Assembly (NCBI RefSeq): GCF_040684925.1
Contig: NZ_JBFBGZ010000005.1
Span: 5,775-37,774, forward strand
Reading direction: 5' to 3'
DNA length: 32,000 nucleotides
Origin: Arthrobacter sp. NPDC089319
GTDB lineage: Bacteria; Actinomycetota; Actinomycetes; Actinomycetales; Micrococcaceae
The notes under the pieces are model-generated. The model searched no databases. It was not told where the DNA came from and saw only the letters and a list, made by a program, of their open reading frames with translations. This document shows, piece after piece, positions 28,410 through 32,000 of this stretch. The position numbers and the translations under genes were made by a program. The number at the start of each line of letters is the position of its first letter. The first letter of the stretch is position 1.

Positions 28410-28546
28410 GCACGCAGTGCTTACGGCGGCGTCCCGAGGTTCCCCGGAACGTCTCATCCTGCACCCGCTGACGGGTCTACGACGCCGGTCGGCTTCCCGC
28501 CGTCGTACCCCTGTTGTCCGTGCATCGTTTGGGTTAGGGTGGGCGC

Positions 28547-31500
28547 ATGTCGCGGTTCAGCTACTTGGAGTGGCCCGTTGTACGGCAGCTCCGGTCGAGT
28601 GATTCACTCGGGCGGGGCGAGGCTGTCACGTCGCCACGAACCCGCGACATCGCTCCCCGGACGTCCACCGCTGACCGCGTGGTGCAAAGCGTGTGCCCCT
28701 ACTGTGCGGTGGGATGCGGCCAGCGTGTTTTCGTCAAGGACGAGAAGGTTGTCCAGATTGAAGGCGACCCGGATTCGCCGATCTCCCGGGGCCGGCTCTG
28801 CCCCAAGGGATCCGCCAGCGAGCAGTTGGTCAATGCACCGAGCAGGCAGACGCAGGTGCTGTATCGGGCGCCCCATGCCAAGGATTGGCAGCACCTTGAC
28901 CTGGACACCGCCGTCGAGATGGTGGCCGAGAGGTTCCTCGCCGCACGCCGGAACCACTGGCAGCAAAACGATGAGCACGGCCGGCCGCTCCGGCGGACCA
29001 TGGGCATCGCGGGCCTGGGCGGGGCAACCCTGGACAACGAAGAGAACTATCTGATCAAGAAGCTCTTCACCGCAGCGGGGGCCATTCAGCTCGAAAACCA
29101 AGCACGCATTTGACACTCCGCCACGGTTCCCAGTTTGGGAACCTCCTTTGGGCGCGGGGGAGCGACGCAATCGCTCCAGGACATGGCCAATGCCGACTGC
29201 ATTGTTATCCAGGGCTCTAACATGGCCGAGTGCCATCCCGTCGGCTACCAGTGGGTGACGGAGGCCAAGGCGCGCGGCGCGAAGATCATCCACGTGGATC
29301 CGCGGTTCACCCGGACCAGTGCGGTGGCCGACAAACACGTCCCGATCCGCGCCGGATCGGACATCGTCCTTCTGGGTGCCCTGATCAACCATGTGATCAG
29401 CAATGATCTGTGGTTCAAGGAATACGTTCTTGCCTATACGAACGCGGCAACGCTGGTGGGCGAAGACTTCCGTGACACCGAGGACTTGGAAGGGCTGTTC
29501 TCCGGATTCGATCCGGAGACGGGCCACTACAACCTGGCTTCCTGGGCTTACGAGCGGAAGCCAGAGGCAGAAGAAGCGGCAGAACTCGGACACGAACATG
29601 GCGCCGATACCGCCGCCCGGGCCGCCGGCGATCAATACGGCAGCGGCGGCCCGCCCCTGGGGCGCCCGGATTTCGAGCAGGATCTGACCCTTGAGCATCC
29701 GCGCACGGTGTTCCAGATCCTGAAACGCCATTACTCGCGCTACACCCCGGAAATGGTCCGGGACGCCTGCGGCTTCTCCCTCGAGGATTTCGACTACCTC
29801 GCGCGGGCCGTCACGGAGAACTCCGGCCGCGACCGGACCACCTGCTTTGCGTATGCCGTCGGCTGGACCCAGCACACGGTGGGCGCTCAGTTCATCCGGA
29901 CCGCGGCGATCCTGCAGCTGTTGTTGGGCAACGTGGGGCGGCCAGGCGGTGGAATCATGGCGCTGCGCGGCCATGCCAGCATCCAAGGTTCCACCGACAT
30001 CCCCACGCTGTTCAACCTGCTACCCGGATACCTCCCGATGCCGAAGGCCGGCATTGAGACGCTGCGCGAATACTGCGAAGGCATCGCGTCCCCGGAGCAG
30101 AAGGGCTTCTGGGCAGACGCGGACGCCTACACCATCAGCTTGCTCAAGGCCTGGTGGGGCGACGCGGCCAACGAAGACTCGGACTGGGGCTACGGCTACC
30201 TGCCCCGGATCAATGGCCCGCACGGGACGTACCAGACCGTGATGAGCATGCTCGATGACGAGGTGGAGGGCTACTTCATCTTTGGCCAGAATCCCGCCAT
30301 CGGGTCCGCCAACGGCAGGATGCAGCGCCTGGGCATGTCCCACCTGAAATGGCTGGTGGTGCGCGACCTCAACCTGATCGAGTCGGCCACCTGGTGGAAG
30401 GACGGTCCGGAGATCGCCTCGGGCGAGCTGCGCACCGAGGACATCGGCACCGAGGTCTTCTTCTTGCCGGCCGCGACCCATGTGGAAAAGGCCGGCTCCT
30501 TCACGCAGACCCAGCGGCTGCTGCAATGGCGGCACCAGGCGGTCCGGCCGCCGGGGGACTGCCAGAGCGAACTGCAGTTCTTCTACGAGCTGGGCAAGCG
30601 GCTCCGGGCCAAGCTGGCGGATTCGACCGATGAACGGGACCGGCCGCTGCTGGATCTGACCTGGGACTATCCCACCGATGAGAATGGCGAACCTGACGGC
30701 GAGGCGGTGCTCGCCGAGATCAACGGCCGGCATCTCACAGGTCCCAAAGCAGGCCAGCCCCTTTCGTCGTACACCGAGATGCGGCCCGACGGCTCGACGT
30801 CGGGCGGATGCTGGATCTACACCGGCGTCTACGCGGACGGCATCAACCACGCCGCGGACCGGAAGCCGGGTCAGGAACAAGGGCCGGTCGCCGCCGAATG
30901 GGGCTGGGCCTGGCCGGCCAACCGGCGCATCCTTTACAACCGTGCCTCGGCGGACCCCGAGGGCAAGCCCTGGAGCGAACGCAAGAAGTACATCTGGTGG
31001 GATCAGGAGCAGAACCGGTGGACCGGCGAGGACGTCCCCGATTTCCCCGTGGACCGCGCTCCGGGGAGCCGTCCGGATCTATCCCTGGGCGGCGCGGCCG
31101 CGCTGGCCGGGGATGACCCGTTCATCATGCAGGCCGACGGTAAGGGATGGCTGTTCGCGCCGAAGGGCATGGTGGACGGCCCGCTGCCGACGCACTATGA
31201 GCCGCAGGAGTCCCCGGTGGCGAACCCGCTCTACCGGCAGCAGCAGAACCCCGCGCGACTGATCTATCCGCGCGAAGACAACCTCAGTGCGCCCAGCGCG
31301 GGCACACCCGGGTGGGACATCTACCCGTACGTCTTCACCACGTACCGCTTGACCGAACACCACACAGCCGGCGGGATGAGCCGGTGGCTGCCGTACCTCT
31401 CCGAGCTTCAGCCGGAGATGTTCTGCGAGGTGTCGCCGGAATTGGCGGCCGAACGTGGATTGGAACCCTACGGATGGGCAACCATCATCTCCCCCCGGGC

Positions 31501-31852
31501 CGCCATTGAGGCCAAGGTGTTGGTCACCGAGCGGATGCGGCCGTTGGTGGTGGGCGGTCGCACGATGCACCAGATCGGGCTTCCTTACCACTGGGGAGTC
31601 GGCGGTGACGCCGTCGTCAGCGGCGACGCTGCCAACGACCTGCTGGGGGTGACCTTGGATCCGAATGTGCAGATCCAGGAGTCCAAGGCCGGATCATGCG
31701 ACATCCGTCCGGGCCGGCGGCCGCAGGGACCGGAACTGCTCTCCTTGGTTGCGGACTATCAAGCCCGCGCCGGGGTAACGACCGAGACCGGCAGCGACAA
31801 GGTCACCGACCCCAACCGCGCGTTGGGCGACGACTCGACGAGGGAAGGCTAA
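28547..31852 (+). CDS. fdnG: formate dehydrogenase alpha subunit (FDH-N/O-like molybdopterin enzyme) with in-frame TGA = selenocysteine at codon 189
   Basis: ORF-track pieces 28547-29113 and 29135-31852 are in the same frame and are joined by ...LENQARI-TGA-HSATVPSLGTSFGRGGAT... This reproduces the FdnG/FdoG active-site context (QAR[IV]-U-H..TV..L...FGRG). N-terminal [4Fe-4S] motif CPYCAVGCG...C. Molybdopterin-family sequence continues throughout. 1101 codons in total. Confidence 0.88.
29111..29113 (+). other. UGA selenocysteine recoding codon
   Basis: The TGA lies exactly at the position of the catalytic Sec/Cys of formate dehydrogenases, and the reading frame and homology continue across it. 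Confidence 0.8.
29114..29143 (+). promoter_or_regulatory. SECIS-like hairpin downstream of the UGA
   Basis: GGTTCCC(A) 29125-29132 pairs with (T)GGGAACC 29136-29143, giving a 7-8 bp perfect stem and a small G/U-containing loop (AGUUU or GUU). It starts 11 nt after the UGA, a position compatible with bacterial SECIS elements. Confidence 0.6.
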
Positions 31853-32000
31853 ATGAACAAGCTGACCGAAGCTCCCGGACACATTCCGCACACGGGACAC
31901 CCGCGCAAGGGCTTCTTCACCGACACCTCGATCTGCATCGGCTGCAAAGCGTGCGAAGTGGCCTGCAAGGAATGGAACCGCAACCCCCACGATTCGGAGT
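31853..32000 (+). CDS. fdnH: 5' part of formate dehydrogenase beta (4x[4Fe-4S]) subunit, continues past the window
   Basis: ATG 31853 lies directly after the alpha-subunit TAA. MNKLTEAPGHIPHTGHPRKGFFTDTSICIGCKACEVACKEWN carries the first ferredoxin CxxCxxCxxxC motif in the FdnH-like context. Confidence 0.85.
   Translation, partial: MNKLTEAPGHIPHTGHPRKGFFTDTSICIGCKACEVACKEWNRNPHDSE

Follow-up and report, generated by a model that had tools for sequence, protein, structure and literature searches.

The catalytic subunit of formate dehydrogenase (FDH), FdhA, is the commonest selenoprotein of bacteria, and switches between its selenocysteine (Sec) and cysteine (Cys) forms have been documented (PMC1794560). 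In Actinomycetospora chiangmaiensis, an FdhA1 of 1078 amino acids (aa) carrying Sec is found together with FdhB1, FdhC1, SelA and SelB, and the removal of formate depends on selenite (PMC7176365). A study from 2026 that covered 244 mycobacterial genomes detected selA, selB, selC and selD, with a single selenoprotein FDH, in about 40% of them; selC lies directly upstream of selA there, and annotation splits the FDH into 'fdhA' and 'fdoG' (PMC13449736). The Sec trait has also been listed, and attributed to horizontal transfer, for two Arthrobacter strains (PMC5029168). Here we describe a related locus from an Arthrobacter genome of 4.05 Mb (100% complete), beginning near the end of a stretch of 32,000 nucleotides (nt), C5:5775-37774, which we refer to as the window. 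Its fdhA gene carries an in-frame TGA at codon 189, and from a comparison of sequences we conclude that this is almost certainly a Sec codon, with a hairpin as its signal, in one intact gene for a membrane-bound FDH, and that the sel genes lying downstream would serve its decoding.

The TGA at 29111-29113 is in frame with the ATG at 28547, at a distance of 564 nt or 188 codons, and when it is translated as Sec (U) a single open frame of 1101 codons results, which extends to the stop codon at 31850-31852 and shows no second internal stop. Under translation table 11 the in-frame stop leads to the listing of two open reading frames (ORFs), which an earlier note on this DNA had proposed to be one and the same frame, correctly as it now appears. 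An upstream extension of the fdhA frame is impossible because a TAG at 28535-28537 closes it, and the TTG at 29135, given as the start of the second ORF, falls within the hairpin and is an artefact of the ORF listing rule. Around the recoded codon the peptide reads ...NQARI-U-HSATVPSLGTSFGRGGAT.

Translated in this way, FdhA matches the NCBIfam model NF041513 ('formate_DH_Act') with 1946 bits, for a cut-off of 1400, with residues 7-1073 aligned to positions 4-1066 of the 1067 in the profile, and it carries the Pfam domains PF04879 (Fe4S4), PF00384 (molybdopterin oxidoreductase) and PF01568 (dinucleotide-binding). The best matches among solved structures are the tungsten enzyme (W-FDH) of Desulfovibrio gigas (1h0h, E 5e-207) and FdnG of Escherichia coli FDH-N (1kqf, E 1e-201). 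Residues U189-H190 are aligned with X-H of both 1kqf_A and 1h0h_A, where X denotes their selenocysteine, and the alignment to 1kqf bears out the FdnG-like active-site context that had been recognised earlier from the sequence. The LRGH segment with the conserved active-site Arg is also found (FdhA residues 472-476, aligned with 1kqf), and the [4Fe-4S] site is formed by Cys50, 53, 57 and 85.

Orthologous loci were collected from a scan of one genome per species, which yielded 80, and from relatives, which added 18 for a total of 98. They occur in Arthrobacter, Paenarthrobacter, Kocuria, Sinomonas, Mycobacterium, Gordonia, Brevibacterium, Knoellia and other genera; the closest is from Arthrobacter sulfonylureivorans (95%) and the mycobacterial ones are 78-81% identical and carry the same hairpin. 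The codon aligned with residue 189 is TGA in 97 of the 98 loci and TGC in the other, and this identity of position indicates a stop fixed at one codon rather than scattered disruptions. In the Cys-form orthologues (n=11) TGC or TGT occupies the same codon and the frame is uninterrupted. The codon comparison advised in the earlier note uncovered no disruptions at variable positions. The same note had described selenoprotein use as patchy, and this agrees with the distribution of the gene, which is present in 12 of 16 genomes of the same genus and, at E <= 1e-150, in 80 of 301 genomes sampled evenly over the class, most of the full-length matches carrying one TGA and about a dozen none.

Two departures from this pattern were seen. 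In six class-level orthologues (in genomes G071, G131, G144, G184, G217 and G068) the matched span holds two TGA codons in frame, and the additional one could encode a further Sec, mark a frame boundary or reflect a disruption. In genome G008, of the same genus (L037 and L039, G008:C6:540082-543392), the match falls into two pieces covering residues 1-755 and 847-1101, which are 95-97% identical with about 90 residues missing between them; this copy could be truly disrupted while keeping its TGA and selA.

In the minimal Sec insertion sequence (SECIS) of E. coli fdhF, the spacing from the UGA to the upper stem is 11 nt and the loop follows a G-U rule. The hairpin in the Arthrobacter gene, which the earlier note had placed at 29125-29143, proved to be a perfect 8-bp Watson-Crick stem with the loop GUU, starting exactly 11 nt past the UGA. 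Genome-wide, 402 perfect 8-bp stems with a 3-nt loop were counted in 8.09 million positions, and the probability that any perfect 8-bp hairpin with a loop of 3-7 nt starts at +8 to +20 of a given site is about 0.004; the hairpin is beyond chance. Its stem is built with codons that are minor in the locus, namely GTT (10% of its codon family), AGT (4%), TTG (14%) and GGA (17%), a synonymous choice whose joint probability is about 6e-6. A covariance model of the element (R1) finds a single match in the 4.05-Mb genome, at the fdhA site, with 92 bits. No promoter-like site was found, nor any terminator-like site overlapping the hairpin, which is therefore not read as a terminator.

Conservation of the hairpin was followed in an alignment that spans positions -6 to +63 relative to the UGA, comprises 87 distinct sequences and required no gaps. 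The eight pairs are formed in 98.9% of the 696 cells, as against 25-70% for 3' partners shifted by 1-3 columns, and RNAalifold predicted these same pairs and nothing else. Three of the pairs are invariant, one-sided variation (U-A/U-G, A-U/G-U) is seen in another three, and the last two have double changes, with compensatory changes from G-C to A-U and from U-A to C-G; the G and U of the loop do not vary across the alignment. In a codon alignment of 94 orthologues, with 1092 windows of seven codons, the lowest third-position entropy of the whole gene occurs in the windows at residues 190-197 (0.237 bits, for a median of 0.968 and a 5th percentile of 0.587). All 97 Sec forms keep 7-8 of the eight pairs and the 11 Cys forms, in which the hairpin is lost, 4-7, the latter having reverted to G+C-rich codons, with Ala or Val replacing Pro195. 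By the total minimum free energy (MFE) of positions +3 to +45, Sec forms (mean -15.6) and Cys forms (-10.7 to -18.2) are not told apart; the in-register hairpin alone distinguishes them. A more extended MFE structure of the single sequence was rejected on the basis of its pairing across the alignment, which amounted to 77% for the lower stem and to 37% and 47% for two 3' helices.

The hairpin also touches the protein. Pro195 (CCC, 29129-29131), whose codon supplies three stem bases, is invariant in the Sec forms, whereas each of the 11 Cys forms has Ala or Val in its place, and residues 196 and 199 switch only among codons that preserve pairing (Ser/Gly, Thr/Ala/Val). It appears that the protein sequence is in part prescribed by the SECIS, and the comparative data provide an example of such an element constraining both synonymous sites and one residue, Pro195, of its host protein.

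The machinery for Sec incorporation, selA, selB, selC and selD, had been predicted to be encoded in this genome, and all four genes were found, above curated cut-offs, on the same contig 2-6 kb downstream of fdhA. The tRNA-Sec also matches RF01852 at C5:40785-40875, with 76.9 bits for a gathering score of 47, and has the anticodon UCA. Co-occurrence was examined in 40 relatives and the genome itself: selA was above the cut-off in all 17 genomes with the TGA form, it was not found in the sole Cys-form genome of the set, and the genomes lacking the gene also lacked selA with the exception of G032. As the genomes are related, this is a matter of consistency and not a statistical test. The exceptional genome, from the same order, has selA (418 bits) and no orthologue of this FDH at E <= 1e-100, and its Sec machinery presumably serves a different selenoprotein.

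Several results weigh against the interpretation of TGA and hairpin as a Sec codon with its signal in a membrane-bound FDH. The folding energy of the single sequence does not differ significantly from that of shuffled sequences (z = -1.12), so that the evidence for the hairpin is that of the orthologue comparison; there, most positions of the stem show no variation at all, which limits covariation to two pairs, and the orthologues are related, such that the counts overstate their independence. When the whole window was scanned with Rfam at gathering thresholds there were no hits, and in a permissive scan of 141 nt the model SECIS_3 (RF01989) was aligned end to end (1-59 of 59, E 2.4e-6), with a poorly conserved lower stem and a score of 33.5 bits, under the gathering score of 63. 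SECIS_3 expects a bulge, which the 8-bp stem lacks, and, by comparison with the E. coli SECIS, the bulged U is missing from what is here a continuous stem with a 3-nt loop. The predictions of the earlier note nevertheless held up, each of them, when tested; for the SECIS search that it recommended, the element proved to be conserved with covariation, and its Rfam match is full-length and sub-threshold. As regards the partner subunits, FdhB scores 169 bits with TIGR01582 (FDH-beta), under the cut-off of 335, and FdhC matched no NCBIfam family and is of another type than the cytochrome b in E. coli FDH-N.

Three other explanations of the in-frame TGA were considered, which between them retain only a slight probability, each being contradicted by the data on orthologues and synteny. 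That fdhA is a pseudogene created by a nonsense mutation, with a coincidental hairpin, would be in keeping with the splitting of the frame under table 11, with the seemingly broken copy in the same-genus genome G008 and with the true FDH pseudogenes present in Mycobacterium ulcerans (PMC13449736). Nevertheless, we regard it as extremely improbable, and in effect refuted by the comparison of orthologues, given an identical stop codon in 97 of 98 loci over many genera with the remaining frame intact, its location exactly at the catalytic Sec position, a hairpin that represents the strongest synonymous constraint in the gene, and the complete set of sel genes adjoining it. There is just as little to be expected of two separate genes, one for an N-terminal Fe-S protein of 188 aa and the other for a C-terminal protein of 905 aa whose start would be TTG 29135 or ATG 29183. 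One family model covers both parts end to end, the solved homologues are single chains across the junction, the Cys-form orthologues are uninterrupted, and the TTG lies inside the conserved hairpin, with the seven codons from TGA to TTG being conserved at the protein level in all orthologues; these facts stand against the two ORFs of the listing and the mycobacterial annotations that list 'fdhA' and 'fdoG' (PMC13449736).

A little less remote, and still very unlikely, is a selenium-free read-through of the UGA, by a near-cognate tRNA for Trp or Cys or by Cys-tRNA(Sec) under selenium limitation, in which case the enzyme would not always be a selenoprotein. The supply of selenium in soil is variable and the Cys-form orthologues show that the family works with Cys, but dedicated selA, selB, selC and selD genes adjoin fdhA and co-occur strictly with the TGA form, a hairpin of the SelB type is conserved and, in Actinomycetospora, where the same cluster is found, formate removal is selenium-dependent (PMC7176365). 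For annotation, the consequence of reading the TGA as Sec is that the gene should be called as one selenoprotein coding sequence with a translation exception, and neither as a pseudogene nor as two genes. The risk of a split annotation, raised in the earlier note, is real in that Prokka-style annotation of mycobacteria yields 'fdhA' and 'fdoG' (PMC13449736); NCBI does, however, maintain a dedicated model, NF041513.

We infer that the gene is functional, and likewise selenium insertion, SelB binding and the nature of the metal, the quinone and the membrane orientation. A ribosome arriving at UGA189 would encounter the 8-bp hairpin 11 nt downstream, holding SelB that carries GTP plus Sec-tRNA(Sec); SelB would then deliver selenocysteine, and termination by release factor 2 would be avoided. 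In the folded enzyme, Sec189 would become a ligand of Mo or W, beside His190, and electrons from formate would pass by way of the [4Fe-4S] cluster at the N-terminus to FdhB with its four clusters, on to the NrfD-type FdhC and presumably to menaquinone. Formate oxidation by this Arthrobacter is predicted to need trace selenium, as has been shown for a relative with the same cluster (PMC7176365).

Features of the fdhA-fdhBC-sel region are collected in Table 1.

Table 1. Coordinates of the fdhA gene, its predicted recoding signal and the downstream genes. Unprefixed coordinates are those of the window; L020 is the region C5:34000-46000, and an L020 coordinate plus 28225 gives the window coordinate.
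Feature	Coordinates	Strand	Evidence
fdhA, predicted Sec-containing catalytic subunit of a Mo/W-bis-pyranopterin guanine dinucleotide (bis-PGD) FDH, 1101 codons	28547..31852	+	Translation with TGA=U, NF041513, PDB, Pfam
UGA codon 189, predicted Sec (Mo/W-centre ligand), followed by His190	29111..29113	+	Alignment to FdnG and D. gigas FDH; orthologue codons
Spacer from UGA to hairpin, 11 nt	29114..29124	+	Sequence itself; length constant in gapless 87-sequence alignment
Predicted SECIS core, 8-bp stem 29125-29132/29136-29143, loop GUU 29133-29135	29125..29143	+	Pairing, covariation, codon constraint
End-to-end alignment to Rfam SECIS_3 (RF01989), under gathering score	29108..29166	+	33.5 bits
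Cys50-x2-Cys53-x3-Cys57, N-terminal [4Fe-4S] site (fourth ligand Cys85 in LCPKG)	28694..28717	+	PF04879, residues 44-96
ALRGH, residues 472-476, conserved active-site Arg/His segment	29960..29974	+	Aligns with LRGH of 1kqf and LRGE of 1h0h
fdhB start; ATG right after fdhA stop; gene leaves window	31853..32000	+	Four-cluster ferredoxin subunit, C-terminal membrane helix
fdhA	L020:322-3627		
fdhB, 337 aa, four-cluster ferredoxin, C-terminal hydrophobic helix	L020:3628-4641		Fer4_11/Fer4_7 domains
fdhC, NrfD-type membrane protein	L020:4638-5717		PF03916, 63.9 bits; 4-nt overlap with fdhB
selD	L020:5731-6783	minus	381.3 bits (cut-off 125)
tRNA-Sec (selC)	L020:6786-6880		ARAGORN tRNA-SeC (tca)
selA	L020:6919-8250		405.5 bits (cut-off 267.9)
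selB	L020:8210-10054		302.3 bits (cut-off 242.25)

Upstream of fdhA are a small DUF1801 gene, an amino-acid permease gene on the minus strand and an ABC importer, with no obvious relation to formate dehydrogenase. Two antisense ORFs, at 28604-29986 and 30020-30880, matched no Pfam family and were taken to be shadow ORFs of high-GC DNA. An exact look-up in a protein collection found neither the ORF fragments nor the full protein on record. Between the cluster motifs of FdhB, encoded downstream, lies an insert of about 60 residues with a high content of Pro, Gly and Asp. The longest selD ORF begins at a distance of 2 nt from the 5' end of the tRNA-Sec gene, which is divergent from it (L020:5731-6919, corresponding to C5:39730-40918); since the selD profile match begins at residue 29, the true start may be further in. 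The gap between the end of selC and selA is 38 nt; mycobacteria have the same selC-selA arrangement, and co-transcription and regulation have been proposed for it there (PMC13449736).

The gene for the sulfurtransferase FdhD (158.8 bits) is located elsewhere in the genome, on contig C12 (C12:57123-60269), far from the fdhABC-sel cluster and directly upstream of a gene for an FdhF/YdeP-like oxidoreductase that has no in-frame stops. When a second selenoprotein FDH was sought in the genome, the other molybdoenzyme genes also proved free of in-frame stops; no general scan for other selenoprotein families was made.

The N-terminus bears on the side of the membrane on which the enzyme operates. FdhA shows no twin-arginine translocation (Tat) signal peptide, its N-terminus being polar, with a single Arg and no h-region, and with FdhB also lacking such a signal the enzyme may face the cytoplasm. 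Residues 1-49 (28547-28693) are polar, and several orthologues start with M-A-R-R-S-F-L-Q/E-W-P, which is twin-arginine-like without a hydrophobic core. This RRxFL-like N-terminus is reminiscent of the Tat peptide remnants in molybdoenzymes that are not exported, NarG among them, and, by that analogy, suggests either a cytoplasm-facing enzyme or a chaperone-binding tail. To our knowledge, every structurally characterised FdnG-type enzyme has an orientation other than cytoplasm-facing. It was also observed that fdhA lies about 7 kb from a locus for a group 1h/5 high-affinity hydrogenase, in an aerobe. A rather doubtful proposal would be that the Sec-FDH, facing the cytoplasm on its NrfD-type anchor, forms one module with the hydrogenase by which persisting cells scavenge the trace electron donors H2 and formate, Sec conferring the required high affinity and oxygen tolerance.

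The absence of a Tat signal and the NrfD-type anchor are traits of the whole actinobacterial family, and what novelty is left resides in the apparent cytoplasmic orientation of the enzyme alone. The earlier note had rated the novelty of the finding too high. This actinobacterial form of the enzyme was already published, together with its SECIS and its linkage to selABCD (PMC13449736, PMC7176365); the finding is correct but ordinary, because the same arrangement has been described in related bacteria.

In relation to the E. coli FDH-N and FDH-O alpha subunits (1kqf) and D. gigas W-FDH (1h0h), FdhA is of the same fold family and has in common with them the Sec-His pair and the LRGH segment as well as the N-terminal [4Fe-4S] motif; it differs from the solved structures by about 40 extra residues (approximately 338-377) that do not align with them. 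Unlike E. coli FDH-N, it lacks a Tat signal, the remnant RRxFL-like motif occurring in some orthologues only, and its membrane partner is of the NrfD type rather than the cytochrome b FdnI. With the SECIS elements of E. coli fdhF and fdnG, the hairpin shares its nature as a stem-loop within the coding region, an upper stem that begins 11 nt past the UGA and an apical loop containing G-U. The likeness is closest to the actinobacterial FdhABC systems (NF041513; FDH1 of PMC7176365; the mycobacterial FDH of PMC13449736), which have Sec near residue 190 of about 1080-1100 aa, beta and gamma subunits of about 340-360 aa and about 360 aa, respectively, adjacent selA and selB, and selC directly upstream of selA. 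Apart from selD, only the host, Arthrobacter, sets the locus apart. In Actinomycetospora selD is located elsewhere, whereas here it lies in the cluster, divergent from selC. The locus is, in sum, one more member of the known actinobacterial Sec-FDH family, with a conventional mechanism and no new principle.

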